A stretch of 64,000 nt of DNA from Candidatus Liptonbacteria bacterium (GTDB lineage: Bacteria > Patescibacteriota > Minisyncoccia > UBA6257 > 2-01-FULL-56-20): assembly GCA_016867315.1 (NCBI GenBank), contig VGJV01000002.1:51386-115385 (forward strand), read 5' to 3'. The notes beneath the pieces were generated by a model. It saw nothing but the letters and a program-made list of their open reading frames with translations, had not been told where the DNA came from and did not search any database. The translations under genes were made by a program, and so were the position numbers. This document shows, piece after piece, positions 732 through 63,247 of this stretch. The stretch's first letter is position 1. Each line of letters opens with the position of its first letter.

Positions 732-1224
732 CGCAGCAATTTACTAATTTATTAACGATGTCTTTATACGTCCACGCCTTCTCGGCTCCGGCAATTTCTT
801 TGAACTCCCCGGCATTAATCAGTTTAAGCCGCAAAACCCAAAACATCGAATAGGTTTCATGCGCTTTTTTGAAAAGCTCTTTCGCCTCTTCTTTTTTACC
901 GTCTGCATTGAGTTTCGTCCCCACTTCCATGAGCCGCATGGTGGCTGCCAAGAGGTGCTTCGTAATGCACCAGGTTTCGCCTTCGTGCTTCGGCACCATC
1001 CGCTCCATCACGCTTTTCCGCAATTCTCGAATTTGCGTAAGAAGCCCTAAATATTCCTCCTTGCCAGTTTTCACGTTGGTGAAGAATAAATGCTCCTCCA
1101 AACTTACTAAGTTCATCGCCGCAATGCTCAAATCCTCCTCGGTAGATAAATCCACCGTACCGGAAGCTTTGAGTTTTTCTACCTTTTTTATGATTTCTCC
1201 GAAATCGAATGTTGGGTTAGTCAT
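724..1224 (-). CDS. Hypothetical protein (trimmed to the MTNPTFDFGEI... start)
   Basis: Charged, helical-looking sequence in the minus frame. The ORF-track 251-aa version extends upstream through a Cys/Ser-rich stretch that is unlikely to be coding. The antisense 869..1624 ORF is Ser-rich and was judged spurious. Confidence 0.5.
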   Translation of the reverse strand: MTNPTFDFGEIIKKVEKLKASGTVDLSTEEDLSIAAMNLVSLEEHLFFTNVKTGKEEYLGLLTQIRELRKSVMERMVPKHEGETWCITKHLLAATMRLMEVGTKLNADGKKEEAKELFKKAHETYSMFWVLRLKLINAGEFKEIAGAEKAWTYKDIVNKLVNCCDE

Positions 1225-1351
1225 GAATTTGAATGACTGTAAAGAACACATAGCTGCAGGGCTTCTCGCAGTCCCGCCAAGGCGGGAAGAGCAGAGCTGC
1301 TGCGGCTGCAGCCGCAGACAGCGTCCCTGCAATATGTGTTCGAACAGTCCA

Positions 1352-2134
1352 TTAGAAGATAAACACGAATATTCCAAGAAGGATCGCCAAGAGCCCTCCC
1401 CACAAGCGCAATCGACCTGTTTCCCGCTTCTTCCAATCCTCAATTTTAGCGAGCACGCCTTTGTCACTCCCCAAGGCAAGCATCACGACGAGCGGCGCTA
1501 CGAAAATGAGGTTATAGAGCGCGAGATAGCCGAGCCCCATGAGATATGTTCCTTGATCATGCAAGAGCCCCAACACCAAGAGGTATGGCCCTCCCGTACA
1601 GGGAAACTCGCACACTCCCACTAATGCCCCCAAGAGAAATGCCGCTGGTAGCGTCGATCTCTCCATAAGCGCAGCCATTGGCCGATGGGAAATAGATGGG
1701 ATTTTAAGCTTGATGGGAAACGAAGGAAAAAAATGATTCACGAGACTCAGGAATCCCGCCGCGATCATAAGCGACGCCGCAATCTTCGCCATGAAATGGG
1801 GCGTGTTGAAGAGATGGAGCGCCTGGAGAAGCCCTATTCCAATAAGGAAGTACGCGGCAAAAATCCCCGCGATATAGAACGCCCCTACGGTGAGAATTTT
1901 TCCTCGTGCCGACCCCAAACTCACGAGAAACGCTATCGTAAGAATAAGCACCGAAAACGCACACGGATTGATGCTATCTAAAAGAGCAGCTACCAACACG
2001 AGAGGCAAAAGCCATTTTCCTTCGCCCGAAAGATTCCAGAGCGCCTCGGTTCCAATATTCCCTGTCTTGATTACGATCACAGTTCCTAATACTGCGACCG
2101 CTAATCCTACGAGAATCCAGAATTTCTTGGTCAT
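1352..2134 (-). CDS. ccdA: Cytochrome c-type biogenesis / thiol:disulfide interchange membrane protein CcdA (DsbD core family)
   Basis: 260 aa, six or more TM segments, conserved Cys in TM helices (INPCAF ... CEFPCTGGPY) typical of the CcdA/DsbD family. Confidence 0.8.
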   Translation of the reverse strand: MTKKFWILVGLAVAVLGTVIVIKTGNIGTEALWNLSGEGKWLLPLVLVAALLDSINPCAFSVLILTIAFLVSLGSARGKILTVGAFYIAGIFAAYFLIGIGLLQALHLFNTPHFMAKIAASLMIAAGFLSLVNHFFPSFPIKLKIPSISHRPMAALMERSTLPAAFLLGALVGVCEFPCTGGPYLLVLGLLHDQGTYLMGLGYLALYNLIFVAPLVVMLALGSDKGVLAKIEDWKKRETGRLRLWGGLLAILLGIFVFIF

Positions 2135-4107: not shown

Positions 4108-4214
4108 AAATAAAATTTCTAATTTCTAATTGACCTAATTTCTAAAGAAAATTGTTGCGCCTTATTCATTGGGAGTTGGGATTTATTTAGGAATTAGAAA
4201 TTCTGAATTAGAAA
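4108..4214. repeat. AT-rich inverted-repeat element (aatttctaatttctaatt ... aattagaaattctgaattagaaatt) between ftsX and ftsE
   Basis: Arms of about 30 nt at 4113-4145 and 4178-4212 flank a 30-nt GC-richer centre. Confidence 0.45.
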
Positions 4215-4898
4215 TTACACAAGGATATATTTGCCTTTAACCTCGTCCCGGAACACCCGCCCTCGATCGAGCGTAATCACACGCTTTTCGAGATTATTGA
4301 TGATTTCCTTGTCGTGGGTGGCAAGTATTACCGTCGTCCCTAATTGATTGATTTTCTCCAATAATTTAATGATTTCCGCAGTATGAAATGGATCAAGATT
4401 CCCCGTCGGCTCATCCGCAATAATGACTTCCGGCCGGTGGATCATCGCCCGCGCGATTGCCACCCGCTGCTTCTCCCCTCCTGAAAGCTCATGCGGAAAA
4501 TTCTTGCTCTTCTCGGCCAGCCCTACCATATCCAAAACCTGCGGTACCAACTCATTAATCTCCCGCTGAGCCCGCCCCTCTACCTCGAGCGCAAATGCGA
4601 CGTTCTCAAATGCAGTTTTAGTGGGAAGCAATCGGAAATCCTGGAACACCACTCCGATATGGCGACGAAATTGGGGTAATTCGCTGGAACCCAATTTATT
4701 GACTTCATATTGACCAAAAAACACCCGGCCGCGGCTGGGTTTCTCTTCTCCAATTAAAAGCTTAATAAGCGTAGACTTTCCGGCTCCCGATCTCCCCGCA
4801 AGCGAAACGAACTCTCCCTGTTTTATCTCTAACGTAACATCCTCAAGCGCTGGACTTAAGTGATCATAAATTTTAGCTACCCCTTGAAAAAAAATCAT
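4215..4898 (-). CDS. ftsE: Cell division ATP-binding protein FtsE
   Basis: Walker [13 protein letters not shown] signature [14 protein letters not shown], Walker [12 protein letters not shown]. Trimmed to the [11 protein letters not shown] start. Confidence 0.85.
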
Positions 4899-4971: not shown

Positions 4972-6004
4972 TTAAACTCCTTTTTCTATTTCCGCTTCAA
5001 TAAATAAATCAAGTTCTCCATTTAAAACCTTATCCACCTGCGAAGTTTCCACTTCAGTGCGGTGATCTTTCACTAATTGATACGGATTCAAAACATACGA
5101 ACGGAGCTGATTGCCCCACTCTGGCTTTACTTTTACCCGCAACGCAGAAAGTTCTTCCACATGATGCTGCTCCATAAGCTGAAAAATCTTGGCCTTCAAG
5201 AGCCGGAGCGCATATTCCCGATTCTGCTGCTGACTTCGCTCTACCCGCGCGCTCACGGCGAGCCCAGTAGGCAAATGCACCACGCGTACTGCCGTTTCCA
5301 CCTTGTTCACATTTTGTCCTCCCGGACCCCCCGCCCGGGAAAATTCCCACTTCAAATCAGCTTCCGGGATTTGAATTTTTGACTCCTCGACGGAAGGCAA
5401 ATCCGGCACGACTTCCACAAGCGCAAAAGCCGTATGCCGCAGCTGCTTTGCGGAAAAGGGAGACATCCGCACCAAGCGGTGCACTCCCGATTCTTTTTTC
5501 AGATAGCCGTAGGCATATTGTCCCTTCATCTCGATCATGCGCCCCCGAGGATTATCATCCAGAATCCGGGTTTTCCATCCATTCCGCTCAGCATAGCGAA
5601 TATACATTTCTCCAAGCATTCGTGCCCAGTCTTCCGCATCTTCCCCTCCTGCTCCGGGATATACCGAGAGCACCGCCGCTTGCCCGTCATATTTACCCTT
5701 AAAAAGCTCCTCGAGTTCCAGCGTCCGAAATTTCCGGCGTATTTCGTAAAATAAATTCTCCTCAAAGTTACTCTGGAGAGTCGCAAGTCCATCCTCAATT
5801 TCTTTGTACCGGGAAAGCAAATCCCGAAGAATCCCCCCGCGTTTCAGCTTCTCTTCGGCTGCCGCCTTATCCTGCCAAAAACCAGGCACGGCCATATCCG
5901 CCTCCAATTCTTTTAGTTCTTTTTCCTTTACCGCGAGGTCAAAGCCGCCCGCCTAACCGGCGGGCCTCAGTCGCAAGTTCTTCCAAATTCTCTCGCGAAT
6001 CCAT
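4972..6004 (-). CDS. prfB: Peptide chain release factor 2, with a programmed +1 ribosomal frameshift
   Basis: GGQ motif (RAGGPGGQNVNKVETAVR). A 21-codon ORF0 (MDSRENLEELATEARRLGGRL) ends at CUU UGA C (5944-5938) preceded by the SD-like AGGCGGG. The +1 frame then continues to the 4972 stop. Confidence 0.85.
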
Positions 6005-10827: not shown

Positions 10828-12285
10828 TCATGATTCGTTTTTGCGATGCCGCATCAAAGGATAGATCACTGTCTCGCGCAAAGGTTTATCCATAAGAAAC
10901 GCAAAAAGCCTCTCCGAAAGTCCGAATCCTGCGATGGGCGGAAATCCATATTCCATTGCTCGCAAGAATTCCTCATCAATCATCTGCGCCTCCGTATCTC
11001 CTGCTTCTCGCAATTTCATCTGCTCCTCAAATCGTGCCCGCTGATCCAAAGGATCGTTCAACTCCGAAAACCCTTTTGCCAATTCCGTTGCTCCGGCCAC
11101 TACTTGAAATCGCTCCACGCGTTCCGGATCTTCCGCCATCCGCTTCGCAAGGGGCTCAATTGCTACCGGGGGATTCACCAAAAAGCCCGGCTGAATAAGA
11201 TTGGGTCTCACAGTTTTTTTATAAATAAGATCGATGAGCCTTCCTCTTCCAAGGCCTGGTTCGAGCGCGATCTTCAAAGCCTGCGCTTTTGCCCTAAGCT
11301 CTTCAACATTTGCAGTGCGCGGATCAAGCCCGTTCGCCTCTTGGAAAACTTCACAGTACTCTATTTTCTTCCACTTCTTTCCCCATTCAATTTTTTTCCC
11401 TTGATGCATGGTAGTAAGTCCTCCAGTAACCTTCTTGATCGTCTCTTTAAATAAAGCTTCGGTGATCTTCATCAAATCATGGTAGTCCCGATACGCCCAA
11501 TAAAATTCGAGTTGCGTGTAGTCCTGGAGATGCTCCCGATCGATACCCTCGTTTCGGAAGATACGCCCGATTTCGAATACTTTCTCATACCCACTCGCCA
11601 TAAGCTTCTTCAAAGGCAGCTCCAGCGAAATCCGAAGATAGAAATCGGCATCGAGTGCATTGTGATGAGTGATAAAAGGCTCTGCCTCCGCTCCGCCCGG
11701 CACTATCTCGAACACCGGCGTCTCTACCTCCAGAAATCCTTCCTTTTTAAGGAAGTTACGAATAGTATCCCAAAACCCTGCTTTTTTGCGGAATAGTTCT
11801 CGAGCCTCCTCGGAAAAAAAAATATCCAAATACCGCTCCCGCAACCGAGTCTCTACATCTTCCACTCCATACCACGTGGAAGGCATGGGACGAAGCGACT
11901 TCGAAGCCAAGGTAAGCGCCTTCGCTTCTACGCTCTGCTCCCCCCTCTTCGTCACAAAAAGCGGTCCAGTCACAGAGAGAAAATCCCCCCGATCGAGTAC
12001 CGTCCGCCAAAATTCGAAGTCTTTTAAACTCTCCTCTTTAAGTACCGCTTGGATCGAACCGGATTCATTCCGCAAATCCAAAAACACAATTTTCCCTTGA
12101 TCGCGGATGCTCATTACGCGCCCCACAAGAGAAACTTTCTTTTTAGCCTTCGAGAGGGAAGCAAATTTTTCCTTCGCTTCTGCAACAGAGTGCGTACGCG
12201 GCACCTTCACAGGATAAGGCTCTACCCCATGGGCCTTGAGCGCCTCTAATTTTTTTCGCCGCTCGGCAATAAGATCCTCCAACAT
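10828..12285 (-). CDS. lysS: Lysine--tRNA ligase (class II)
   Basis: 485 aa, N-terminal OB anticodon-binding domain (GRVMSIRDQGKIVFLDLRNESGSIQAV) and class II catalytic motifs. Confidence 0.9.
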   Translation of the reverse strand: MLEDLIAERRKKLEALKAHGVEPYPVKVPRTHSVAEAKEKFASLSKAKKKVSLVGRVMSIRDQGKIVFLDLRNESGSIQAVLKEESLKDFEFWRTVLDRGDFLSVTGPLFVTKRGEQSVEAKALTLASKSLRPMPSTWYGVEDVETRLRERYLDIFFSEEARELFRKKAGFWDTIRNFLKKEGFLEVETPVFEIVPGGAEAEPFITHHNALDADFYLRISLELPLKKLMASGYEKVFEIGRIFRNEGIDREHLQDYTQLEFYWAYRDYHDLMKITEALFKETIKKVTGGLTTMHQGKKIEWGKKWKKIEYCEVFQEANGLDPRTANVEELRAKAQALKIALEPGLGRGRLIDLIYKKTVRPNLIQPGFLVNPPVAIEPLAKRMAEDPERVERFQVVAGATELAKGFSELNDPLDQRARFEEQMKLREAGDTEAQMIDEEFLRAMEYGFPPIAGFGLSERLFAFLMDKPLRETVIYPLMRHRKNES

Positions 12286-12426
12286 TGTTATCCATACTAC
12301 CAGCTTTTTAGGCCCTTACAAAATGGAACCGTCTCTTCTTCCAACATAAATGAAGTCCTGTTTCTGCAAGGATTCTCGAACCACTTTCCCAACTAAGTGA
12401 AATCCTGCTTTTCTCGAACGTGGTCC

Positions 12427-12522
12427 AATATGCGAAGTCCTGTTTCGTGCAGAGATTCTCGGAGTGCGTCGGCACGAGAGCATAGCGGTCGCGAAAGCCC
12501 TTCGCGAACCGCGTCCCCGCAA
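12427..12522. repeat. GC-rich structured repeat, copy 1 (conserved core plus a covarying closing helix). Partial copies lie at 12342-12372 and 12387-12410
   Basis: Core GATTCTCGGAGTGCGTCGGCACGAGAGCATAGCGGTCGCGAAAGCCCTTCGCGAACCGCGTCCCC. Flanked by gtcctgtttcgtgc ... gcaagaaataggac (14-bp helix). Lies between the greA stop and the lysS start. Confidence 0.6.
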
Positions 12523-12542
12523 GAAATAGGACAAGCCCCTTT

Positions 12543-13048: not shown

Positions 13049-13852
13049 TTAAATTTCGTTCTTTGCTTCTTGCTCTTCTCTGCCCGGCAGTGGTTTCGTC
13101 GCGGCAGAATTTTTAGTTCGGATATGATAGGTATCCGCCCAAAGTCTGAAGCGAATTGTAAGGGTTTCGATAGCAAAACGCAAGCCTGCCGAAAGCGGCA
13201 CTGTGGAAGCTCGGTCGTTTCTCCAATGCGCCGGAATCTCTTTGATGCGCAACTCTAAAGCACGCGCCAACGCCAAGGCCTCCACATCGAAGGCCCACCC
13301 ATTCATCTCCGCTCGAGAAAATATTTCTTCCGCTGCGCCACCCGTAAATACCTTGAATCCGCATTGGGTGTCCCACACACCGGGAAGAAGAAGCGCTTGC
13401 GCAAAAAGATTCAGCACTTTTCCGGCCACCCGTCGAAAAAGGGGTTGTGGCGGATCTAACTGCGCTCCACGCACTGCTCTCGAAGCCACCACTATATCGT
13501 ATTGCTCATGTTCATTTTGAAGATAAGGAAGGGCGAGCTCGAGATGCTCAAGAGAAGTAGAATTATCTGCATCCATAAATAGACGGATCTCCCCTCGGGC
13601 CGCAAGCATTCCTTGTCTCACCACCGCCCCTTTCCCGCGATTTTTTTTATTTTCAAGGAGAGAAAGAAAAGGGATGCCTTTGGCCATCTCACTCACAAGC
13701 TCCGCAGTGGCATCTTGCGATCCATCATTCACGACCAGAATCTCATATGAAAAGTTTTTTCCGCTCAAAATCCGATGCACATCTTGAAGCGTGGGCGGCA
13801 AGCGCTTCGCTTCGTTATACGCGGGAATGATGACGGAAAGAAATGGCTGCAT
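13049..13852 (-). CDS. Family 2 glycosyltransferase (dolichol-phosphate mannosyltransferase-like)
   Basis: VIIPAYNEAKRL ... VVNDGSQDATAEL ... DAD motif, consistent with a GT-A fold GT2 enzyme. Confidence 0.75.
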   Translation of the reverse strand: MQPFLSVIIPAYNEAKRLPPTLQDVHRILSGKNFSYEILVVNDGSQDATAELVSEMAKGIPFLSLLENKKNRGKGAVVRQGMLAARGEIRLFMDADNSTSLEHLELALPYLQNEHEQYDIVVASRAVRGAQLDPPQPLFRRVAGKVLNLFAQALLLPGVWDTQCGFKVFTGGAAEEIFSRAEMNGWAFDVEALALARALELRIKEIPAHWRNDRASTVPLSAGLRFAIETLTIRFRLWADTYHIRTKNSAATKPLPGREEQEAKNEI

Positions 13853-13862
13853 AGCAAGTGGT

Positions 13863-13943
13863 AAGTAGTAGGTAGTATGTAGCGAGAAGAATGTAAACGA
13901 GGTGAAGAATTGATTGCGTATTCTACTACTTACTACTTTCTAC
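13863..13943. repeat. GTAG-rich long inverted repeat (hairpin) between map and the GT2 gene
   Basis: gtaagtagtaggtagtatgtag ... ttctactacttactactttctacatactacttac. Imperfect inverted repeat of about 22-35 nt arms. Confidence 0.5.
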
Positions 13944-13946
13944 ATA

Positions 13947-14711
13947 CTACTTACTCGTGAGTATTCTCGGTCCTGACTCCGTGATCGCCACCGTATGCTC
14001 GAAATGAGCAGTAATACTTCCATCTGCCGCCGCAAAACTATCATCAGGAAACTGCTTCACTTTGCCACGCCCTGCAGCAACCATGGGTTCAATCGCCAGC
14101 ACCATGCCAGGCAAAAGTTTGAGTCCCCGTCCGGGTACTCCCGTATTTAAAACCGAGGGCTCCTCATGAAGTTCTTTTCCAATTCCATGTCCGCATAATT
14201 TTTCTACTATAGAAAATCCGTCCTCTTCCACTCGCTTCTGAATCGCCGCTCCTATGTCCCCTAAAGTATTTCCGGGTCGTGCCTGTCTGATTCCCCCCAT
14301 AAGCGCCGCGTGAGTCGTCTTAAGCAATCGCTTCGCTTCCTCGGTGCCTTTTCCTGCGATGACTGTACGCGCCGAATCCACATTCCAATCTTTCCACGTA
14401 AGCCCGGCATCGATTTTGACCACATCCCTCTCTCTAATTTCATACCCCGAAGGAATTCCGTGCACCACGGTCTCATTTATAGAAACACAAAGCGCCGCAG
14501 GATATCGCTCATCGCTCCCGGGAGCGTGATATCCCAAAAAAACCGGTATGGCTTCCGCTTCTTGAATGAGTTTTCGGGCAAGCAAATCAAGCTCCTCTGT
14601 CCGCATTCCCACACGCACTGCACTCACTAATACCTCAAGCACGTGGGCCAAACGCTTTCCCGCTTCGGCCATCATTTCAATTTCTGCCGGAGTTTTTATT
14701 GTGATTGCCAT
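13947..14711 (-). CDS. map: Methionine aminopeptidase type I
   Basis: 254 aa, conserved metal-ligand residues of the pita-bread fold (D..D..H..E..E pattern). Confidence 0.9.
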   Translation of the reverse strand: MAITIKTPAEIEMMAEAGKRLAHVLEVLVSAVRVGMRTEELDLLARKLIQEAEAIPVFLGYHAPGSDERYPAALCVSINETVVHGIPSGYEIRERDVVKIDAGLTWKDWNVDSARTVIAGKGTEEAKRLLKTTHAALMGGIRQARPGNTLGDIGAAIQKRVEEDGFSIVEKLCGHGIGKELHEEPSVLNTGVPGRGLKLLPGMVLAIEPMVAAGRGKVKQFPDDSFAAADGSITAHFEHTVAITESGPRILTSK

Positions 14712-15876: not shown

Positions 15877-17148
15877 TTATTGGATCCCTTCGTATTCACG
15901 CACCGTAAGCTGCGAATCAATCTGCCTCATGGTCTCCAAAGCCACCGCCACTACAATAAGCAACGCCGTACCGCTTACGGTAAGCACCGCTACCCCCGTG
16001 ATCGCCTGCACAATGATAGGCAAAATCGCAATGAGCCCCAAAAACACGGCCCCGAAGAAAGTCACACGATTCACGGTTTTTTTGAAGAATTCTTCAGTCA
16101 TTTCTCCCGGTCGGATTCCCGGAATAAACCCTCCTCCTCGCTGTAAATTCTTGGCTACCTCCGATGGATTGAATGTGATCGAAGTGTAGAAATAGGTGAA
16201 TGCGAACACAAGCGAGAAGTAGATGATCCCGTAGAACATTCGGTTATTAAGCACACTCGTCACGATCTCATTAAGTTTGACTCCCACCCCGGGAGAAATG
16301 GCCGTCATCACCTGCGCGATGAATTGCGGGAAAAGGAATACTGAGATTGCGAAGATCAAAGGAATCATTCCTGCTTGGTTTACTTTAAGCGGCAGGTAGC
16401 TCGATACTCCGCCGAACATCTTCATGCCCCGCACACGTCGAGCGTACGCCACAGGCACTTTCCGCTCCCCCTCGTTCAAATACACGACTCCAAAGATCAC
16501 AAGAAGCAACACTAAAAGGAATCCGATGTAGGTAGCCAATTTCGCGGGCGTGTAGGAAAGGAGCAGCAAACGCACATTCGCCGGCAAGCCCGCCACAATT
16601 CCTGCAAGGATGATAAGCGAAATGCCATTCCCCACTTTTTGCTCAGTGATAAGTTCTCCGAGCCACACTGCGATCATTGCTCCCGCGGTGATCACCACCA
16701 CAGTCGTAAGCAAAAGCCAAGCATCCGGTCGATCGAGAACTCCCGAACTCATAAGGAGTGCAAGGAATCCGTACGCCTGAAGCACTGCAAGCGGCACGGT
16801 GAGCATTCGGGAATATTGATTAAATTTCGCACGTCCTTGGGCTCCTTCCTCGTAATAAAGTTGCTTGAACTTCGGGAAAATGAGCGTCAAAAGCTGCATG
16901 ATAATTGTCGCCGTGATGTACGGTCCTACCCCCAACATCATGACCGACAAACTTTCTAATCCTCCTCCTGAAAAAAAGTTCAAAAAACCCAAGAGCTGGT
17001 TGGAGTTGAAATATTGCTGGAGTCTGTCCGCATCCACCCCGGGAATAGGAATAGCGGCAAAGAAACGGTATGCCACAAGTACCCCTAATACGATAAGGAT
17101 TTTGTTGCGGATTTCAGGGATTCTAAAAATTTGGAGGATTCGATTCAT
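15877..17148 (-). CDS. secY: Preprotein translocase subunit SecY
   Basis: 10 TM segments and SecY signature regions. Trimmed to MNRILQIFRIPEIRNKIL, because the longer ORF would overlap the upstream repeat element. Confidence 0.9.
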   Translation of the reverse strand: MNRILQIFRIPEIRNKILIVLGVLVAYRFFAAIPIPGVDADRLQQYFNSNQLLGFLNFFSGGGLESLSVMMLGVGPYITATIIMQLLTLIFPKFKQLYYEEGAQGRAKFNQYSRMLTVPLAVLQAYGFLALLMSSGVLDRPDAWLLLTTVVVITAGAMIAVWLGELITEQKVGNGISLIILAGIVAGLPANVRLLLLSYTPAKLATYIGFLLVLLLVIFGVVYLNEGERKVPVAYARRVRGMKMFGGVSSYLPLKVNQAGMIPLIFAISVFLFPQFIAQVMTAISPGVGVKLNEIVTSVLNNRMFYGIIYFSLVFAFTYFYTSITFNPSEVAKNLQRGGGFIPGIRPGEMTEEFFKKTVNRVTFFGAVFLGLIAILPIIVQAITGVAVLTVSGTALLIVVAVALETMRQIDSQLTVREYEGIQ

Positions 17149-17171
17149 AACGTTAAGTAGTAAAAAGAGAC

Positions 17172-17272
17172 GTCGGCTTCGGGTGGAAAAGGGATTCTCG
17201 GAGCGCGGCGGCGCGAGAGCATAGCGGCTGCGAAAGCCCATCGCGGACCGCGTCCCTTTGCCATACGAAGCC
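17172..17272. repeat. GC-rich structured repeat, copy 2 (between rplO and secY)
   Basis: Core GGGATTCTCGGAGCGCGGCGGCGCGAGAGCATAGCGGCTGCGAAAGCCCATCGCGGACCGCGTCCC. Flanked by cggcttcgggtggaaaaggga ... tccctttgccatacgaagccg (21-bp helix, 19 pairs). Confidence 0.6.
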
Positions 17273-17291
17273 GCGCCGGAGCATACTCATA

Positions 17292-17735
17292 TTATTGCAC
17301 TTTTCCTCCTGCCTTCTCAATCTGAGCCTTGGCAGACTTAGATGTCGGCAAACCGTGAAGCTCGAGAGAGGCCGAAAGCTCTCCCCCTCCCAAAATTTTC
17401 ACTGCGCCGCGAAACCCCGGTGGAATAATACCTGCCTTCTGAAGTACCTCGCGGTTCACCACCAAAGGTGCCTTGCTGTCATGAAGCGGCGCTAACTTCT
17501 TTCCGAGAATTCCTACTTGAATCGGTATCGGCTTAGCCTCAATCGGCTTATTGCGAAACCCTCGACGCTTAGGAAGTCGAATAATGAGATCGCGCACCGC
17601 CGGCCGGATACGCCGCCCGGATCGGGATTTCTGCCCCTTTACTCCGCGTCCGGAATAACTGCCTCGCTTACCGCTGCGCCCAATGCGCTGCGCTCGCTTT
17701 TTAGCCGGATTTTTTTGTAATTCGTGTAATTGCAT
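17292..17735 (-). CDS. rplO: 50S ribosomal protein L15
   Basis: Gly/Arg-rich N-terminus and L15 family conservation. Position in the spc operon. Confidence 0.9.
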   Translation of the reverse strand: MQLHELQKNPAKKRAQRIGRSGKRGSYSGRGVKGQKSRSGRRIRPAVRDLIIRLPKRRGFRNKPIEAKPIPIQVGILGKKLAPLHDSKAPLVVNREVLQKAGIIPPGFRGAVKILGGGELSASLELHGLPTSKSAKAQIEKAGGKVQ

Positions 17736-25832: not shown

Positions 25833-26049
25833 CCAATTCGCATTATTTGCCTCCATTCGAATTATTCGCGATTACTCCTAAATAAAAACTGCCCAAGGCA
25901 CGTACCTTTAGGCAGGGACGTCCTTGTGCAACCCAGCTCTTTACGCTTTAGGAATCCAGCACAACATCCCTAGAAAATTCTCACATCGAGAAGTTATACG
26001 GGACAATGTGTTGTTGCCTAAAGGGCTGGGCCATTAAAGAGACTGGAAC

Positions 26050-26080
26050 ATGATAAGCCAAATGGCAAAAAGTGTCAAAC
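26050..26080 (-). terminator. Hairpin terminator immediately after the RelE/ParE toxin gene
   Basis: aaaaagtAGTGTttgACACTttttgcc is a perfect palindrome flanked by A/T runs. Confidence 0.55.
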
Positions 26081-26081
26081 A

Positions 26082-26360
26082 CTACTTTTTGGGTTTCTTG
26101 TATACCTTATCCCGCAACGCAATGCGATGAATCGTAACAATATGTGATTCGTGTTCCATCTCGTAAACCACTCGCCAATCTCCTACACGCAGCTTAAAAT
26201 ATCCGTGCCACTCGTGGCCAAGCGCCTCATGAACAACCGAAGGAAAATTCTCGCGAAACCACTCCAATTTGCCTAAAATCCTTCTCTGTACTGGCGCGTC
26301 CAAAGAGCGTAAATCTTCCTCTCCGGTGAGAGTGAAAGTAAATTTCCAGCCCGAGGACAT
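26082..26360 (-). CDS. Type II toxin, RelE/ParE family
   Basis: 92 aa. FKLRVGDWRVVYEMEHESHIVTIHRIALRDKVY is typical of the RelE/ParE fold (plasmid stabilisation system protein). Confidence 0.75.
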   Translation of the reverse strand: MSSGWKFTFTLTGEEDLRSLDAPVQRRILGKLEWFRENFPSVVHEALGHEWHGYFKLRVGDWRVVYEMEHESHIVTIHRIALRDKVYKKPKK

Positions 26361-26368
26361 TCTATAAA

Positions 26369-26569
26369 CTAGAGCGAACTCACTACCTCCTCAAAAGTAC
26401 GGATCCTGCCTTGCTTTTTTTCCGCAGCAGATTTCTTGAGTCTCTTTACAAACGCGGAGCGAATCTCAAGTCCTTTGTCAGAATCGATAAGCAATTCGCG
26501 CAATGCACGCTGCACCGCCCGCTCCACCACTGCTTCGATTTTTTTTTCTTCAATAGTAATGCGAGCCAT
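26369..26569 (-). CDS. Putative antitoxin (ribbon-helix-helix or Phd-like), partner of the RelE/ParE toxin
   Basis: 66 aa, helical and charged. Stop lies 9 nt upstream of the toxin start. Confidence 0.6.
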   Translation of the reverse strand: MARITIEEKKIEAVVERAVQRALRELLIDSDKGLEIRSAFVKRLKKSAAEKKQGRIRTFEEVVSSL

Positions 26570-26980
26570 GCTTTCACTCTACCTCCTAAAAATGGAAAGT
26601 CAATGAAGCTTGGTCTGAAGCGTACGCGTATTCCCATGTTTCAAGAGCCCTCGATACGATTCGAGCGTTGCCGATTTTCCATTATTCGCCACATTCTTGA
26701 ACATCCGCCGCTTCGTCGCCGTGCGGAGTACGCGATGGTCGGGAAAATGGAAGGTGTTCATACTTTTTTTTGCCACGGGGACTTGGACGCACACTCGCTC
26801 TATGCGAGGGCGTTGCATCACTTATTGATTTTGCCGCAGCACTCATTCCGCGACTGTCTGCTTCTTCTACATCAATCCGCGACATGAATGCTGGGGCAAA
26901 AAACCTCTCAAAAGATTGGGTAAATCATACCATTTCTCAATAAAAAACGCAAGGATTAAAGGATTAGCCTTGAAAACACA

Positions 26981-27007
26981 AACGCACCCTTTCGAGTGCG
27001 TTTTGTT
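26981..27007. terminator. Intrinsic terminator-like hairpin downstream of rpsJ and the copy-3 repeat
   Basis: aacgcac-cctttcga-gtgcgtt stem-loop followed by ttttgtt. On the minus strand it is followed by gtgttttc. Confidence 0.55.
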
Positions 27008-27020
27008 ACTAATCCAATAA

Positions 27021-27055
27021 GCGAAGTCCTGTTCCAGATGGGGATTCTCGAACCC
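27021..27055. repeat. Partial copy of the GC-rich structured repeat (5' helix strand plus the first 9 nt of the core)
   Basis: gcgaagtcctgttccagatggggattctcgaaccc is the same truncation point (ctcgaacc) as the two partial copies at 12.34-12.41 kb. Confidence 0.5.
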
Positions 27056-27099
27056 AATAAAAGGAACGGGGGCATATTCTCTTACAGCTAACAAAGCGA

Positions 27100-27195
27100 A
27101 ATCCTGCCGCTTGTGGGGATTGTCGGAGCGCGGCGGCGCGAGACATAGCGCTGCGAGAGCCCCTCGCAGATAGCGTCCCCACAAGTGACAGGATG
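27100..27195. repeat. GC-rich structured repeat, copy 3 (3' of rpsJ)
   Basis: Core GGGATTGTCGGAGCGCGGCGGCGCGAGACATAGCGCTGCGAGAGCCCCTCGCAGATAGCGTCCCC. Flanked by atcctgccgcttgtgggga ... tccccacaagtgacaggat (19-bp helix, one mismatch, one G-U). Confidence 0.6.
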
Positions 27196-27203
27196 AGCGC
27201 CTC

Positions 27204-34802: not shown

Positions 34803-37664
34803 CTATCTCCCTCCCAAAAGATTCACGAACGGCGCAATGATTGTTCCTAAAAGTGAGGGCTGATTTCTCGAAGACTGCGGAGGTGGCGGAGGAGGTTGCG
34901 ACTCTCCACTAGGAGGGGGAGGAGGTGGAGGTGTTCCCTGACTCGGCTGAGGGTACGTGCCCTGCGGAGGCTGAGGATACATTCCTTGCGGAGGGTACTG
35001 CATTCCTCCCGGCGGCTTAGGATACTGACCATCCATTCCCGGCTGGAAACCCGCCGGAGGATTCATAGGATATTGCCCCGGCTGTCCTGGAGTCCCTGGT
35101 TGACCCGGAAATCCCCCCTGTGGAGGCATGCCTGGAGCTCCCGTCGGGAACTGCCCCTGCATCTGTCGGTTCACTTCTCCCTGAAACCGCTCTTGATACT
35201 GTTTCTGAAACTCCGCGTTGTACTGCTGATTAAATTGCTGATTGAACTGCTGCCTATGCTGCTCGTTAAATTGCTCCGGCCGTTGCCCACTCTCCACCGG
35301 AGGCCCGATCGGGCGCGGAGGAACTCTCCCCGGCTCTATGCGGCCGCCTTCCTGTCCAGGAGCACCGCCGTGTTGATTTTTTCCTTGCTCCATCTTGCCG
35401 TAACACTCTCCAATAGCTTTAGCGACTTCGGGAGAAGGCTCACTTCCTCGGCGCAGTTTTTCCAAATCCGCGGCCTCCCCCAGCATAGTCTTCACGCACT
35501 GGAGTACTGGCTCTGGTGCAGGACCCCTGCCCTGCACAGCACCTTGTCCTTGCGGATTCCCCGGAGGTCCGAACCGCTGGTCAGGTTTGCCTCCAGGAAA
35601 ATTCCCTTGTCCCCCTCGGGAACCTGGCAAACTCTCAAAACACTCCTGCATGGCTTTTCCTATAGCTCCTCCCCGGCCACCTCCCGCACGCAATGCTTCC
35701 CCACCTACTTCCCCTCCTATTTTTCCTTTCACGCAGGAAAGCACTTCAGGAGGTATCCCATGCTGAGGCCCCCCTTTAGTTCCCTGCTCTCCCGCGAAAC
35801 TTCCTTGCCCAGGTCTCTGCATTTTCCCGAAACACTCCCGAATGGCCTGTCCCAGAGACCCCCGGTCCGATTCCGCACCGCGCAGCTTTTCCTCAGTAAC
35901 CTCACTACCTGTTTTTTCTTTTACGCACGAGAGCACCTCATGAGGAATTCCTCCCCGCCCGAATGCCTGCCCTTCTCCAGACGGAAATCCTTGCGACCCG
36001 GGGCCACTTGGAAACCCTCCTTGCTCGCCTCGCTCATACCTAGCAGGCGAAGCGGGCCCGCCCTCTCCTCCTGCGGGAGGACCGAAGTGTTCTTGAGGCC
36101 GGAACTGCTCGAAACAACCCCTCATAACCGAAGGGTCTAATCCTTCGACAAGTTCCCCATTTTGAAGCTTTTCGAAATTCGCACCAAGCTTCTCCTTGAA
36201 ACAACTCGCCACTTGAGGTGGAGCCGTACGAAGGAACCGCTGAAAGTCGTGTGGTTGAGGCCTTCCGAATCCTCGACCAGCACCCCCTTGTCCCGGCTGT
36301 CCAGGGCCGCCTGGCTGCCCTCGGAATTCTCCTCCCGGACCACCCGGTCCCCCGGGCTCTCCGAAAAATCCTCCTTTTTCAAATTGCACACTTTGGAAAC
36401 ACACTCGGAAGGTATCCGCGATCTCGGGCGTAGGCGCTTCTTCTCCTTTCTTTATCTTCTCAAATTTATCCCCGAGTTTTTCCTGAATACAAGCGATCAC
36501 CCCCTTCGGGGCATCCTTGAACATATCCTGCGGACCTTTGCGATGTCCGAACTTCTCAAAACACCCCCCCACGCGCTCTCCAATTTCCGGCCCAGGAGTA
36601 AGTTTCCCAGATTCAATATCTTCAATCACATTTGGGCCCACCACCGATTTCAAACAGGCTGCCACTTCTGGAGGAGCATGCTCAAGGCCCGCACGCACCC
36701 GCACAAAGCCCTCTTTGGCCCGCCGCACTTCTTCTTTGCTGATAAATCCATGTTCTTCCGCAAATTTAAAACAGGCTTCTCGATTTGCCGGATCATTACA
36801 GTACGCCTCACACGCCCGGGGAGAGCTACAACCTCCCGGCCCCTTGCCTCCAGTTTTGCGAATCCGTTCTGCTTCGTCTCGGGACATAAACCCAGCTTTT
36901 TCTGCAAACGCCACGCATTCTTCTCCATGCGCCGGCCCATTGCAATATGCCTCACACGCTTCCTTGGATTTACAGCCGCCAGGAGTTTCCCCTTTTTTCG
37001 CAAGCTCCATCACCTTCTGGAACTGCTCAGGAGAAAGATCGTCATCTCCGTGCTGCGGCCCAGGCCCTCCCGGCCGCGCCTGTCCTTTGGCCTGAATAAT
37101 CCCCGCCTTCTTTGCAAACTCAAAACACTCTTCCGCATGGGAAAAATCACTGCAATATGTTTTACATTCCTGCTCGGATTTACATCCTCCAGGCGTAGTA
37201 CCTCCCGCCTTGATATGCTTTAATACCCTCTCCCCCTGTTCCAAATCCCTGCTTTTAATCCCCTGTTTCTTCGCAAAACTCACACATTCTTCTAAATGAG
37301 TGATATCGCTGCAGTACGCTTCACATTCCCCGGGGCTTTTACACCCACCCGGTCCCCCCTTCGCCACCGCCTGGGAGAATTTTTTTGCCCGTTGAGCCTC
37401 TTCTTTATTCATCAATCCGCTCTTCTCCGCAAACGCCACGCACGCTTCTACATTCGCGGGATTTTCACAGTATTGTTTGCAGGCCTGTTTATCCCCGCAG
37501 TTCCCCAATTCCGGGATGGGAAAAATAATACCGCTCGCTTGAATCTGCGCGTCCGTGGGGCCTTCCGGCACATTCGATTCTTGGGCATACACTGCCCCGA
37601 AAAATCCCGCCCATACAAACGCGAACCCCACCAGACCAAGCCCAATGCGCAATTTGATATTCAT
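34803..37664 (-). CDS. Large secreted modular protein with cysteine-motif repeats and Gly/Pro/Gln low-complexity regions; putative surface/adhesin protein
   Basis: Signal peptide (MNIKLRIGLGLVGFAFVWAGFFGAVYA). Five modules of CX5CX3CX8C (e.g. CKSPGECEAYCSDITHLEECVSFAKK), six modules of about 45 aa with two Cys (PPEVLSCVKEKxG...CFExx), GGPGGPGG/QPG linkers, a Q/N/F-rich then P-rich tail, and a hydrophobic C-terminus. Confidence 0.75.
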   Translation of the reverse strand: MNIKLRIGLGLVGFAFVWAGFFGAVYAQESNVPEGPTDAQIQASGIIFPIPELGNCGDKQACKQYCENPANVEACVAFAEKSGLMNKEEAQRAKKFSQAVAKGGPGGCKSPGECEAYCSDITHLEECVSFAKKQGIKSRDLEQGERVLKHIKAGGTTPGGCKSEQECKTYCSDFSHAEECFEFAKKAGIIQAKGQARPGGPGPQHGDDDLSPEQFQKVMELAKKGETPGGCKSKEACEAYCNGPAHGEECVAFAEKAGFMSRDEAERIRKTGGKGPGGCSSPRACEAYCNDPANREACFKFAEEHGFISKEEVRRAKEGFVRVRAGLEHAPPEVAACLKSVVGPNVIEDIESGKLTPGPEIGERVGGCFEKFGHRKGPQDMFKDAPKGVIACIQEKLGDKFEKIKKGEEAPTPEIADTFRVCFQSVQFEKGGFFGEPGGPGGPGGEFRGQPGGPGQPGQGGAGRGFGRPQPHDFQRFLRTAPPQVASCFKEKLGANFEKLQNGELVEGLDPSVMRGCFEQFRPQEHFGPPAGGEGGPASPARYERGEQGGFPSGPGSQGFPSGEGQAFGRGGIPHEVLSCVKEKTGSEVTEEKLRGAESDRGSLGQAIRECFGKMQRPGQGSFAGEQGTKGGPQHGIPPEVLSCVKGKIGGEVGGEALRAGGGRGGAIGKAMQECFESLPGSRGGQGNFPGGKPDQRFGPPGNPQGQGAVQGRGPAPEPVLQCVKTMLGEAADLEKLRRGSEPSPEVAKAIGECYGKMEQGKNQHGGAPGQEGGRIEPGRVPPRPIGPPVESGQRPEQFNEQHRQQFNQQFNQQYNAEFQKQYQERFQGEVNRQMQGQFPTGAPGMPPQGGFPGQPGTPGQPGQYPMNPPAGFQPGMDGQYPKPPGGMQYPPQGMYPQPPQGTYPQPSQGTPPPPPPPSGESQPPPPPPQSSRNQPSLLGTIIAPFVNLLGGR

Positions 37665-37958: not shown

Positions 37959-38053
37959 GTATTTTACATTGTAACAAACTCTCTCACCTGCAATTGTGGA
38001 TATCTCCGTTATCAATAAAAATATGAAGGGCGCGTAGTCTCGTTCGCGCTTCG

Positions 38054-38143
38054 ATATGTCCGGCGGGGATTCTCGGAGCGCGACGGCGTGAGAGTATAGC
38101 GGCCGCGAGAGCCCCGCGCGGACCGCGTCCCCGCAGGACATAT
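38054..38143. repeat. GC-rich structured repeat, copy 4 (between the Kelch gene and the small membrane protein gene)
   Basis: Core GGGATTCTCGGAGCGCGACGGCGTGAGAGTATAGCGGCCGCGAGAGCCCCGCGCGGACCGCGTCCCC. Flanked by atatgtccggcgggga ... tccccgcaggacatat (16-bp helix, one mismatch). Confidence 0.6.
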
Positions 38144-38157
38144 GGGAAGCAACAGAA

Positions 38158-46171: not shown

Positions 46172-47233
46172 ATGGATTTGGCCCTCATTCTTATTCTCAT
46201 CCTGATTCTTGCCGCGCTCGCCGGTGGCTTTTGGTTTTTATGGCGGGAAATGCATCGCGAAAAAGAGGCAAAACCCGATCAATCCCTCCTTCTCCTTCAA
46301 AACCAAATCAATGAACTCTCCCGCGTACTTGATAACCGACTAGGGGATTCTGCGAAAGCAATCCAGACGCATTTTGGAGAAAGCACAAAACTTATCCGCG
46401 AAATCACCCAAGAACTCGTGCGCGTGGGCGAAGGTCAAAAACAAGTCCTCTCCATCACCGACCAACTCAAAAACCTCCAGGATATTTTGAAAAACCCGAA
46501 ACAGCGAGGAGTGCTGGGAGAATATTATCTGGAAACCGCCCTCCGAAACGTCCTCCCTCCGGGAAGCTATCAAATGCAATATCCCTTTAAAGATGGGACG
46601 ATCGTGGACGCAGTCATATTCCACCAAGGAAAAATCATCCCCATTGATTCCAAATTCTCCCTCGAAAACTACACGCGCATATTGGATTCGAAAACCGATG
46701 CAGATCGGAAAAAATTTGAGGAAGCGTTCCGCGGCGATCTAAAAACCCGTATCGATGAAACTTCAAAATATATAAAACCCACCGAAGGCACTATCGAGTT
46801 CGCCTTTATGTATATCCCCTCGGAAGGAATTTACTACGACCTCCTGGTCAATAAAGTAGGAGCGGTAGCCGCGCGCGACCTCCTAGAGTACGCCATTGCG
46901 GAAAAGAAGGTTGTCCCCGTCTCTCCTACGTCGTTTGCCGCCTATCTCCAAACAATTCTCATGGGTTTGAAACAAGCTGAAATTAACAAATCTGCTGATG
47001 AAATCCGAAAACGCGTGGGGGACTTGGGTCGCCACCTCATGAGCTTCGAAGAATACATGAAAAAATTAGGCGTGCAATTAGGCACTGCTTCGAAAACCTA
47101 TTCTAAAGCCTATCAGGAGCTCCGGAAAATAGACAAAGACGTGTTAAAAATCAGCGGCGAAACGATGGGTGTAGAACCTATGACGCTCGAAGCTCCGAGT
47201 TTTGACGAAGAAGAAAGCCAAGCACTACTTTAA
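46172..47233 (+). CDS. rmuC: DNA recombination protein RmuC
   Basis: N-terminal TM, coiled coil, and a conserved C-terminal RmuC domain (KNPKQRGVLGEYYLETALRNVLP...). Confidence 0.8.
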   Translation: MDLALILILILILAALAGGFWFLWREMHREKEAKPDQSLLLLQNQINELSRVLDNRLGDSAKAIQTHFGESTKLIREITQELVRVGEGQKQVLSITDQLKNLQDILKNPKQRGVLGEYYLETALRNVLPPGSYQMQYPFKDGTIVDAVIFHQGKIIPIDSKFSLENYTRILDSKTDADRKKFEEAFRGDLKTRIDETSKYIKPTEGTIEFAFMYIPSEGIYYDLLVNKVGAVAARDLLEYAIAEKKVVPVSPTSFAAYLQTILMGLKQAEINKSADEIRKRVGDLGRHLMSFEEYMKKLGVQLGTASKTYSKAYQELRKIDKDVLKISGETMGVEPMTLEAPSFDEEESQALL

Positions 47234-47345
47234 TTTCTAATTACTAATTCCTAAAAAATACTCAAATCCCAAATTCCAAAGGTATCCGTTCGGATTTAGA
47301 AATTGGAGTTTGTTTAGAAATTAGATATTAGGAATTAGGATTTAT
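47231..47345. repeat. AT-rich inverted-repeat element (taatttctaattactaattcctaa ... ttagaaattagatattaggaattagga) between convergent rmuC and ftsZ
   Basis: Inner atccgttcggat palindrome. Same aatttctaatt/aattagaaatt motif family as at 4.1 kb and 31.0 kb. Confidence 0.45.
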
Positions 47346-55606: not shown

Positions 55607-56019
55607 AATACAAGGCTTACCTGCCCCGTGGAAGATGCGACGGAAGCAATCACTTGCACCTTTCTTGTGTGAAACGAGATAGTAGCAGTGGAAAGAATGC
55701 TTACAAGGCCTGTAGCAGGAGAGTTCTGGGTCACCGTAACCGTCGCGTTGTCATTTCCTAACGGCACATTGTACCCTGTGGTATTCGAGAAATCTTTATT
55801 GCGAAGCAATTGAAAATATCCATCGTTCGCCCCCGCCTTGGCCAATCCCAATGCTCGTTGAGCGGCTACGTACCCAAAACTCGAATTTACGAAGCTCGAA
55901 GTAAGAAATCCAAGAGTAACACCCACGAGAATCACAATGCTTCCCACGAGAAACACGAAGGAAAGTGCCGCCTGCCCCTTACGAGAAAATAGAAAATAGA
56001 AAATAGAAAATAGAGACAT
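55588..56019 (-). CDS. Pilin-like (pseudopilin) protein with a prepilin-type N-terminal hydrophobic segment and no Glu5
   Basis: MSLFSIFYFLFSRKG|QAALSFVFLVGSIVILVGV. Leader encoded by the (ttctatttt)n repeat. Confidence 0.6.
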   Translation of the reverse strand: MSLFSIFYFLFSRKGQAALSFVFLVGSIVILVGVTLGFLTSSFVNSSFGYVAAQRALGLAKAGANDGYFQLLRNKDFSNTTGYNVPLGNDNATVTVTQNSPATGLVSILSTATISFHTRKVQVIASVASSTGQVSLVLWKEVQ

Positions 56020-56081
56020 GCAACTTTGAAATTATACCTTTTCTGCCCTTCTACTTTCTACTTTCCAAATTCTACTTTCTG
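55984..56081. repeat. agaaaRtag/ctaYtttct inverted repeats bracketing the start codon of pilin-like gene 55588..56019
   Basis: (agaaaatag)x3.5 at 55984-56015 lies inside codons 2-12. ttctactttctactttccaaattctactttct at 56050-56081 is complementary with G-U pairs. TATAAT and the ATG lie in the 34-nt loop. Confidence 0.55.
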
Positions 56082-56083
56082 TC

Positions 56084-56968
56084 CTAGGGACTCCAATTGA
56101 TAATAACTTCGTTTACGGTAGGAGAAGTAGTTTGCATCCGATTTGATACAAGAATCACTCGATAGCGGAAATATCGCTTACCACTGTGCAATGTGTAATC
56201 CACCCGTTTCGATACCCCAGGACTCGTAGCATAGTACGTATTCGATGTCCCATCCGATCCCACATACGTCCAAGGACCGCTCGAGGAATTAGAAGTAGCG
56301 AATTGGAAACGCACCTGAGTCTCCGACGGCTGGGTACCCTGCCAAAGTACCGAGTTGATCTGCACCCCGCCTGAAACTCCCGTATCAAATGTGGAAGAAT
56401 CTAATGTCGCGATTGCTGAAGTTGCCACCCAAGAAGCCTGCAGTCTGTAATTCGAAACAAGACAACTATTGGAGGTATACTCGCTATTGTTTGCGCAATT
56501 AAAACTAATCCATCCTGCAACATCATTCCAAGCGTAACCGGAAAACATCCCGTTATCCGCATCAATAAGCACCTGATAATTAGAAGTACCGCATCCATTA
56601 TTATTATGGCAATCGAAGCTGATCCAACCGTATTGATCATTCCATGCATAGCCGCTTAAATTCCCGATGCCGTCATTCGTTACCTGATAATTGGATTGAC
56701 TGCAAATATTACCGCCAGAAGTAGTAGCGCAATCGAGGGAAATATCTTCTACCGAAGAACTTGCATATCCTTTGAGAAACTGGGAGTTCACCTTCACGGT
56801 GTCATTGATATAAAAGTCCATCCAGCCTATAAGATCATTCCACGCATAACGATACGTAGAATCAACATCCGTGGCGGCGCGAGCCACAGAAATGACAAGC
56901 AGGAAAGAAGCTACTCCGCATGCGATCCACAATATGGGGTTGGAATTTCGAGGAGAGGGCGATCTCAT
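56084..56968 (-). CDS. Secreted WND/GW-repeat protein in the pilus operon (putative pilus-associated adhesin)
   Basis: Signal peptide. Four repeats of YAWND(L/Q/V)xGW(M/I)(D/S)F(x)C spaced about 40-45 aa apart. Ser/Thr/Asn-rich. Confidence 0.6.
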   Translation of the reverse strand: MRSPSPRNSNPILWIACGVASFLLVISVARAATDVDSTYRYAWNDLIGWMDFYINDTVKVNSQFLKGYASSSVEDISLDCATTSGGNICSQSNYQVTNDGIGNLSGYAWNDQYGWISFDCHNNNGCGTSNYQVLIDADNGMFSGYAWNDVAGWISFNCANNSEYTSNSCLVSNYRLQASWVATSAIATLDSSTFDTGVSGGVQINSVLWQGTQPSETQVRFQFATSNSSSGPWTYVGSDGTSNTYYATSPGVSKRVDYTLHSGKRYFRYRVILVSNRMQTTSPTVNEVIINWSP

Positions 56969-57630: not shown

Positions 57631-57665
57631 TCTATTTTCTGCTTTCTAAATTCTATTTTCTAGTC
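57574..57665. repeat. agaaaRtag/ctaYtttct inverted repeats bracketing the start codon of pilin-like gene 56965..57630
   Basis: agaaagtagaaaatagaaagtagaaaataaa (coding, 57574-57604) and attctattttctgctttctaaattctattttctag (57631-57665). Confidence 0.55.
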
Positions 57666-63174: not shown

Positions 63175-63247
63175 GTGGGTGTGGAAGGAATCGAACCTTC
63201 GACCTCTGTCTTATCAGGACAGCGTTCTACCACTGAACTACACACCC
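63175..63247 (-). tRNA. tRNA-Ile (anticodon GAT)
   Basis: GGGTGTGTAGTTCAGTGGTAGAACGCTGTCCTGATAAGACAGAGGTCGAAGGTTCGATTCCTTCCACACCCACC. Anticodon loop CTGATAA. CCA is not fully encoded. Confidence 0.85.

Follow-up and report, generated by a model that had tools for sequence, protein, structure and literature searches.

The window, by which we mean the whole 64-kb stretch of Liptonbacteria DNA that was analysed, carries a structured repeat in several copies, one of which, copy 2 (c2), lies between rplO and secY. The features of this junction are as follows.

17292..17735, - strand: rplO, encoding L15; TAA stop at 17294-17292; Pfam Ribosomal_L27A on the identical contig L023
17153..17290, - strand: 45-codon bridging ORF through c2; ATG 1 nt past the rplO stop, TAA 4 nt before the secY ATG
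17171..17275, unstranded: c2, Y-shaped palindromic repeat; covariance model 96.3 bits
17171..17196, + strand: 5′ arm of the c2 outer stem P1, CG.CGGCTTCG.GTGG.AAAGGGAT; from the fold and an inverted-repeat search
17197..17219, + strand: c2 hairpin H1, CTC-GGA-GCGC-GGCG-GCGC-GA-GAG; the family's best-conserved module across genomes
17224..17251, + strand: c2 hairpin H2, GCGGCTGCGA...TCGCGG.CCGC; from the fold
17252..17275, + strand: 3′ arm of the c2 outer stem P1; from the fold and an inverted-repeat search
15877..17148, - strand: secY, 423 aa; ATG 17148-17146, beginning MNRILQ; 100% identical to an annotated SecY

A copy of a structured repeat within this spacer had been proposed in a first-pass annotation, and its presence is upheld here by repeat finding, by the covariance model R1 and by covariation. 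The lengths given there, 101 nt for the element and 125 nt for the spacer, did not survive: c2 fills 105 nt of a 143-nt spacer (17149-17291). The same annotation took MNRILQ as the start of secY and regarded a longer ORF as reading through the element, and in this we agree. The longer ORF (454 aa, from 17241 inside c2) is an artefact; among the matches listed, almost all SecY homologues are 423 aa long, and the MNRILQ start is therefore correct. The identical SecY protein is annotated in a Candidatus Liptonbacteria MAG.

The inverted arms of c2 (17174-17194 and 17253-17273) are 21 nt long and 86% complementary, and in the predicted fold P1, the outer stem, measures about 25 bp and is interrupted by two bulges; it is followed by H1, a 4-nt junction and H2. 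In its RNA form, H1 reads CUC-GGA-GCGC-GNCG-GCGC-GA-GAG. The conserved core lies on the + strand, that is, antisense to rplO and secY. Both strands of c2 fold about equally stably, the gene-sense strand at -58.6 kcal/mol (z -4.25) and the + strand at -58.9 kcal/mol (z -2.94); two further copies, c3 and c4, fold slightly better on the + strand. On the mRNA strand, the c2 stem is followed by UCUUUUU, a U-tract that the other window copies lack, and a consensus scan, whose loop limit excludes such a structure, called no intrinsic terminator at c2. A short repeat (TATGA or ATG) is present at both borders of c2. Within the conserved coding sequence at the end of rplO, a sigma-70-like consensus match (TTGAGA-18-AATAAT with an upstream TG) could place a transcript start at the edge of c2.

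In total, the window contains five full copies of the repeat and three shortened units made of the 5′ arm, which lie in the following positions.

1233..1350, unstranded: c0, a diverged copy with a variant H1; 44.6 bits; fills a 127-nt spacer
1221..1352, - strand: 43-codon bridging ORF through c0; TAATG overlap upstream, ATGA overlap downstream
12432..12536, unstranded: c1; 94.8 bits; 6 nt downstream of the greA stop codon (12545-12543)
12338..12423, + strand: two tandem shortened 5′-arm units beside c1; each ends ...TTCTCG/AAC (the slash marks the break)
27096..27200, unstranded: c3; 88.8 bits; 3 nt downstream of the rpsJ stop codon (27206-27204)
27010..27056, + strand: shortened 5′-arm unit beside c3
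38048..38150, unstranded: c4; 100.9 bits; 7 nt downstream of the stop codon of a Kelch-repeat gene (38160-38158)

Repeat finding detected four copies in the same orientation, and shuffled sequences yielded 0 chance matches to an exact 65-nt query. The covariance model R1, built from six copies (four window copies and two metagenomic relatives), gives the four window copies scores of 89-101 bits (E 1e-18 to 1e-21), and it also detects the fifth, diverged copy at 1249-1336. In the six-copy alignment, 96% of the cells are paired in the proposed structure, and two-sided changes occur in 12 of the 30 pairs, a count matched by 0 of 500 shuffles and approached by no slid register. Double changes that keep the pairing affect 7 of the 13 pairs of P1; in H1, compensatory changes have turned C-G into G-C in c3 and C-G into T-A in c1. 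The arm sequences differ between the window copies, yet they still pair, and the core is about 85-90% identical. All five copies have one orientation relative to the genes, and each starts 1-16 nt past the stop codon of the upstream gene. While c0 and c2 fill whole intercistronic spacers, c1, c3 and c4 each follow a stop codon and precede the next promoter or terminator, c4 being upstream of the promoter-like TACAAT of the next gene. The genes flanking c0 encode a 260-aa putative membrane protein (stop 1354-1352) and a product starting at ATG 1224-1222, and neither protein has a Pfam match. All three shortened units, beside c1 and c3, break at TTCTCG/AAC. Adjoining sequence of the same genome, 17 kb in all, held no further copy.

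A protein-coding element was considered and rejected: frame-breaking 1-nt indels are present in c3 and in two loci from other genomes, L016 and L017, Pfam gave no match, and a profile of the translated element, compared with 5.8 billion proteins, matched solely the window's own 43-aa ORF. In searches of Rfam (Rfam 15, whose families cover hammerhead, twister, 5S, SRP and ribosomal-protein leader RNAs), only tRNAs in the window reach the gathering score, c2 has no match at E up to 10, and three other subfamilies gave just spurious long-hairpin miRNA matches. Likenesses to hammerhead, 5S, SRP, K-turn and S8/S15-site RNAs, judged by eye, were likewise set aside: the junction strands lack the CUGANGA/GAA core, and the bulge in the H1 loop beside the tandem G.A is 1 nt and not 3 nt.

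Several other features of the window were recorded. The interval between rpsJ and rplC is about 1.3 kb (25857-27203) and holds, besides c3 and its partial unit, a 73-aa ORF, an intrinsic terminator (27003-26980, - strand), a ParE-family toxin gene (26082-26360) and its 66-aa upstream partner (26369-26569); because the latter two lie between rpsJ and rplC, a toxin-antitoxin pair is situated inside the classical S10 cluster. At 25857-26087 (- strand), the rplC gene has its own promoter (TTGACA-17-TATCAT) and after it a leader conserved in five Liptonbacteria, namely the window and the relatives L019 (590-744), L020 (1130-1277), L021 (332-470) and L022 (332-480). This leader comprises a short ORF of 7-17 codons starting in TCTCTTTAATGG, followed by a hairpin, CACAAGGA...CCTTGGGCGATTTTTT, which is likewise conserved. 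Rfam gives no match for the arrangement, which looks like leader-peptide or attenuator control of the rplC operon. Elsewhere, 37 nt of tRNA-Ile are duplicated exactly (63212-63248 and 63299-63335, 87 nt apart) between tRNA-Ile and tRNA-Val, and the duplicate may be a remnant of integration or duplication. Another, AT-rich intergenic family, with repeats AGAAAATAGAAAATAG or AGGAATTAGAAATT, forms inverted pairs at 4169-4217, 47231-47279, 55981-56084 and 57570-57664. A 953-aa secreted-looking protein with repeated Cys-containing modules and long Gly/Pro/Gln-rich tracts is encoded at 34803-37664 (- strand).

Is c2 an old part of this operon? Four Liptonbacteria relatives, in which SecY is 83-86% identical and the gene order is the same, gave no match to R1. 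Where the window has 143 nt between rplO and secY, one relative has a TAATG overlap and the others have 85, 45 and 11 nt. A comparison of this spacer in related genomes had been recommended in the first-pass annotation, and its outcome favours the element as a discrete insert: the relatives lack the element, their spacers are shorter, and none has a spacer of the window's length without the conserved core. Within the loci covered, the orthologous spacer lacks the element in 4 of 4 relatives for c2, in three for c1, and in three, as well as on the rplC side in L019, for c3; the c1 and c3 sites in the relatives hold only ordinary terminators. Because four relatives lack the element and have shorter spacers, c2 is shown by this sequence comparison to be a probable lineage-specific insertion, made after the split from the sampled relatives. 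The insertion is not datable as recent, because the nearest relative has a SecY identity of only 86%; a search for a closer relative with an empty site returned other assemblies of the organism, which are 100% identical to the window. Since the element is missing at the same sites in the relatives, it is not a conserved feature of secY expression and answers to no conserved regulatory need, and a conserved position and orientation upstream of secY, as expected of a cis-regulatory element, were seen in none of the four. The contexts of the other window copies (after greA, rpsJ, the Kelch-repeat gene and the putative membrane-protein gene) are unrelated.

Unrelated palindromes also fill spacers of the same operon, both in the relatives and in the window. 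For example, the secY-adk spacer of L021 and L022 holds a palindrome, GGAGTAATCGCGAATAA..., and an operon spacer in L019 and L022 holds another, ATCCCGTTAGAAATT.... Because unrelated palindromes occupy the spacers of this one operon, the insertion of hairpins into operon spacers appears, from the sequences compared, to be a general habit of this clade. Intercistronic members of other palindromic families were located at 13852-13955 and 25860-25885 in the window, at 5415-5516 and 6815-6925 in L019, at 11272-11368 in L021, and at 11272-11365 and 6334-6449 in L022. These families include palindromes with AGTAGT/ACTACT arms, GGAGTAATCGCGAATAAT... and ATCCCGTTAGAAATT..., and half of a GGAGTAATCGCGAATAAT palindrome lies directly upstream of rplC in the window.

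How might secY be translated with such a stem in front of it? A 45-codon ORF bridges c2 from just past the rplO stop codon to just before the secY ATG, and one public catalogue annotates a 43-aa version as a gene. Similarly, a 43-codon ORF bridges c0, and a bridging ORF is likewise found in L008, a spacer-filling Niyogibacteria copy of the opposite core orientation. We came upon these bridges post hoc; when the sequence is dinucleotide-shuffled with the codons on either side held constant, a bridge arises by chance in 3% of cases for c2 (161/5000), 16% for c0 and 15% for L008. Taken together, they are suggestive of translational coupling that is kept rather than broken. The unrelated palindrome at 13852-13955 has stops in all frames and no bridging ORF, and therefore such an ORF is not general to long spacers. 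Among 24 start codons between 1224 and 28762, almost none has a Shine-Dalgarno sequence; the leaders are A/C/U-rich (ACTACT, CTACC), and the 22 unstructured, A/C/U-rich nt between c2 and the secY ATG are alike. The idea that the insertion had cost secY its Shine-Dalgarno sequence was dropped, because the genome has almost none. As a separate observation, a -10-like TAGTAT, conserved in L020 and L022, ends 9 nt before the lysS start codon (ATG 12285), and this position suggests near-leaderless mRNAs.

The first-pass annotation had further suggested that the element could be a processing site or stabiliser, or could decouple secY translation from the ribosomal-protein genes. Our results speak against its having evolved for decoupling: copies are interspersed in unrelated contexts, their orientation varies between genomes, unrelated palindromes occupy the same operon's spacers in the relatives, and the 45-codon ORF would keep the coupling. 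Nor does the underlying premise of tight rplO-secY coupling hold across the clade, in which the spacers range from a 4-nt overlap to 85 nt and Shine-Dalgarno sequences are almost absent.

The family extends to other genomes. A strict 21-base H1 pattern was searched for in a set of species-representative genomes, in metagenome contigs and in viral contigs. It matched 14 loci in the genome set (10 in one Niyogibacteria MAG, 1 in another, 2 in a Yanofskybacteria MAG and 1 on a Saccharibacteria-labelled contig) and four metagenome contigs; the scan of viral contigs gave no match. R1 also aligns end to end, at 32-93 bits, with 17 more loci on contigs of Niyogibacteria, Yanofskybacteria and other Parcubacteria. 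Across genomes, H1 and the junction are nearly invariant, and H2 and the arms vary by subfamily, H2 being kept in the Liptonbacteria-type subfamily and replaced by different hairpins in the others. Positions that do not pair are among the near-invariant ones (the junction and, in H1, the GNCG loop and GGA/GA internal loop), and at its base the junction has a U.G pair that does not vary. Wobble cells number 37 for G.U and 10 for A.C, but about 20 of the G.U cells come from the invariant U.G pair, without which the counts favour neither strand. The two copies in the Yanofskybacteria MAG differ in arm sequence and keep their pairing, as in the window.

The Niyogibacteria copies (n=10) are near-identical palindromes of about 150 nt with terminal inverted repeats, GAACTCATCCCAAAACC, and are flanked by TA on the left in 10 of 10 and on the right in 9 of 10. 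Relative to the flanking genes, the element in the Niyogibacteria MAG is sense in 6 cases and antisense in 3, and 2 further cases lie between genes that oppose each other. The window copies are all antisense, and L016 and L017, of the nearest subfamily, are sense; at both of these loci, a terminator-like hairpin precedes the element and the next promoter follows it, so that it belongs to no obvious mRNA. The GC skew of the pattern strand takes both signs across the loci and gives no orientation rule. Three related genomes share the element at one orthologous site, although one of these copies is decaying, and it can therefore be stable over long periods. Several side observations concern these loci. 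The contig labelled uncultured Saccharibacteria (L012, CAZYEL010000014.1) is syntenic with L016 and L017, its proteins being 69-98% identical, and carries a decayed Liptonbacteria-type copy; the label may be wrong. At five Niyogibacteria loci (L003, L006, L009, L010 and L013), the terminal TAG or TGA of the repeat is the stop codon of the upstream gene, and the ATG in the 3′ terminal repeat, GAAATGAGTTCTA, appears to start downstream genes (MSS...), one of which encodes an N-terminus resembling a signal peptide.

How might such an element have come to lie inside this operon? We consider that c2 is a copy in a family of small, non-coding, interspersed Parcubacteria palindromes and is likely to be a non-autonomous mobile element of the MITE/REP-like kind, a reading to which we give a probability of about 60%. 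First, the copies have the size of MITEs (below about 300 bp), at about 105 nt each in the window, and are repeated within a genome, with ten in the one Niyogibacteria MAG. Second, shared terminal repeats, a MITE characteristic, are present in Niyogibacteria as GAACTCATCCCAAAACC; the window arms are complementary but different in each copy. Third, presence and absence at orthologous sites, also expected of MITEs, was observed for c1, c2 and c3. The shortened units cluster beside full copies, and such shortening and clustering has been described in other MITEs as well (PMC10969869). Among the known properties of bacterial MITEs such as ERIC, Correia and RUP are termini of TA, long stem-loop transcripts and ORFs contiguous with their neighbours (PMC2229807). 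For the window copies, neither a target-site duplication nor a shared terminal repeat could be defined, and when all ORFs in about 210 kb of fetched loci and in the window were compared with one another, no repeated transposase-like ORF emerged that would point to an autonomous IS. The family is previously undescribed, and its unusual feature is the conserved branched tip.

According to this model, the long complementary arms would end in an asymmetric tip, conserved and built from two hairpins that meet at a three-way junction, and c2 would have entered the rplO-secY junction in this Liptonbacteria lineage after its divergence from the sampled relatives. It probably persisted because it did little harm at a non-coding site, and it would be tolerated because the 22 nt before the secY ATG provide a normal start context in a genome poor in Shine-Dalgarno sequences. 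Ribosomes leaving rplO would translate the 45-codon ORF, melt the hairpin and re-initiate at secY, and we speculate that operon-internal copies survive where ribosomes can cross and re-initiate in this manner. A processing or stabilising effect of c2 in the transcript is possible by analogy; acting as an RNase III/E target or a barrier to 3′ exonucleases would then be a by-product, as in ERIC and Correia elements, and not dedicated control of secY. Nothing in our results shows c2 to be a dedicated secY regulator.

The most serious competitor of the mobile-repeat interpretation, which we nevertheless regard as unlikely, is that the element has been exapted as a cis-acting RNA. The 25-bp stem would then be an RNase III site, or a 3′-exonuclease barrier by which the ribosomal-protein segment upstream is stabilised, or else an insulator or partial terminator that sets the ratio of secY to the ribosomal proteins, and such a role is compatible with a mobile origin. 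The very stable fold of the mRNA strand, the covarying stems, the UCUUUUU after the c2 stem, and the placement of all five copies in one orientation 1-16 nt after a stop codon are all consistent with this, as are the terminators found in relatives where c1 and c3 sit, and known elements provide parallels, Correia repeats being cut by RNase III and ERIC modulating mRNA decay (PMC2229807, PMC10969869). However, no terminator was called at c2 by the consensus scan, U-tracts are missing from the other copies, the orientation is reversed or mixed in other genomes, the element in L016 and L017 lies outside any obvious mRNA, relatives lack it at the same sites, and a plain hairpin has no need of a conserved asymmetric core.

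The conserved centre raises a different question. When the centre is conserved and the arms covary, this is the mark of selection for a single-strand structure, and it is the reverse of a typical MITE, in which the ends are conserved and the centre is free to change. It is conceivable, if improbable, that the element is structure-specific in its mobility or recombination, the Y-shaped core being recognised in its folded state (ssDNA or RNA) by a dedicated enzyme of the HUH/RAYT-like, integrase-like or RNA-guided type, with arms that provide only a stem. Conservation of the core across subfamilies with unrelated arms, the near-invariance of the unpaired GGA/GA, GNCG and junction positions, the arm covariation within genomes and the invariant U.G pair at the junction base would all fit, but no candidate enzyme gene was seen near any copy, wobble pairs have no strand bias beyond the invariant U.G, orientation is mixed with respect to GC skew, and the Niyogibacteria copies have conventional terminal repeats and TA flanks. 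The folded core as the recognised entity stays in consideration because of the covarying arms, the lack of a recurrent transposase-like gene in the fetched loci and of a definable target duplication in the window, the retained locus and the strand-neutral wobble counts. A similarly slim chance attaches to the proposal that the core (H1, junction and H2) is the heart of a new structure-specific class in candidate-phyla bacteria, recognised by an enzyme when folded, or itself catalytic; such a reading would explain the conserved centre in Liptonbacteria, Niyogibacteria and Yanofskybacteria despite the covarying arms. Finally, a multicopy small RNA gene with its own promoter, transcribed from the core (+) strand and antisense to the spc operon in this genome, is very improbable, for although a covarying three-way junction whose 5′ and 3′ ends form a terminal stem, an orientation independent of neighbours, as expected of a free-standing gene, and the slightly better + strand folds of c3 and c4 suit it, no conserved + strand promoter or terminator flanks the copies, c0 and c2 leave no room for their own signals in spacers of 127 and 143 nt, no Rfam family matched, and the near-identical, TA-flanked multicopy spread in Niyogibacteria fits transposition better.

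Tolerance of selfish DNA within the ribosomal-protein/secY operon of a tiny, tightly packed genome is what the mobile-repeat interpretation would imply, and a short ORF that carries ribosomes across the insert is the apparent route of this tolerance. In the literature on bacterial MITEs, we found no earlier account of small palindromic repeats in Patescibacteria. In practical terms, the element creates a false 454-aa secY ORF, R1 provides a marker for strain-level comparison, and the copies may complicate assembly, the Logan contig L023 breaking off some 330 bp before it reaches the partial unit at c3. If the core were indeed recognised as a folded strand, which is the less likely reading, it would represent a new mobility mechanism.

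Among known repeat systems, the ERIC/IRU sequences of enterobacteria are 127-bp imperfect palindromes that can alter the stability of flanking mRNA (PMC2229807). Like ERIC, the present elements are about 100-150 bp long, intergenic and in either orientation, with a long stem formed by pairing of the 5′ and 3′ ends; ERIC sequences are also co-transcribed with neighbouring genes and have TA termini and contiguous ORFs (PMC2229807). In contrast, the two do not resemble each other in sequence, a conserved branched tip is missing from ERIC, and ERIC copies share their arms, whereas here the arms differ within a genome and the centre is conserved. The REP/BIME/REPIN systems resemble our family in being extragenic palindromes just past stop codons, in clusters with partial units. 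REPs are recognised as hairpins and stabilise upstream mRNA. A REP, however, is a simple hairpin of 20-40 nt with a GTAG-type head and an accompanying RAYT gene in the genome, whereas the present element is about 105 nt long and branched; no RAYT gene was seen in the partly sampled genomes, and the family does not conform to REP/REPIN. Many partial copies also accompany Chunjie, a Geobacter uraniireducens MITE, which is a different family. The TA-bounded terminal inverted repeats on both sides of the Niyogibacteria copies are reminiscent of RUP of Streptococcus pneumoniae and of IS630/Tc1-type MITEs, for which the TA target duplication is attributed to IS630-type mobilisation (PMC2229807). No IS630-like parent with matching ends was found, the window copies have no such ends, and the flanking TA in Niyogibacteria could instead be part of the repeat. 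The Correia/NEMIS elements of Neisseria are likewise small TA-flanked palindromic repeats, many of them located within transcription units, but they have conserved terminal repeats of 24-26 bp and an IHF site, without a three-way junction. Their mRNA hairpins are cut by RNase III (PMC2229807, PMC10969869), a precedent for processing that may also occur at the stem of c2.
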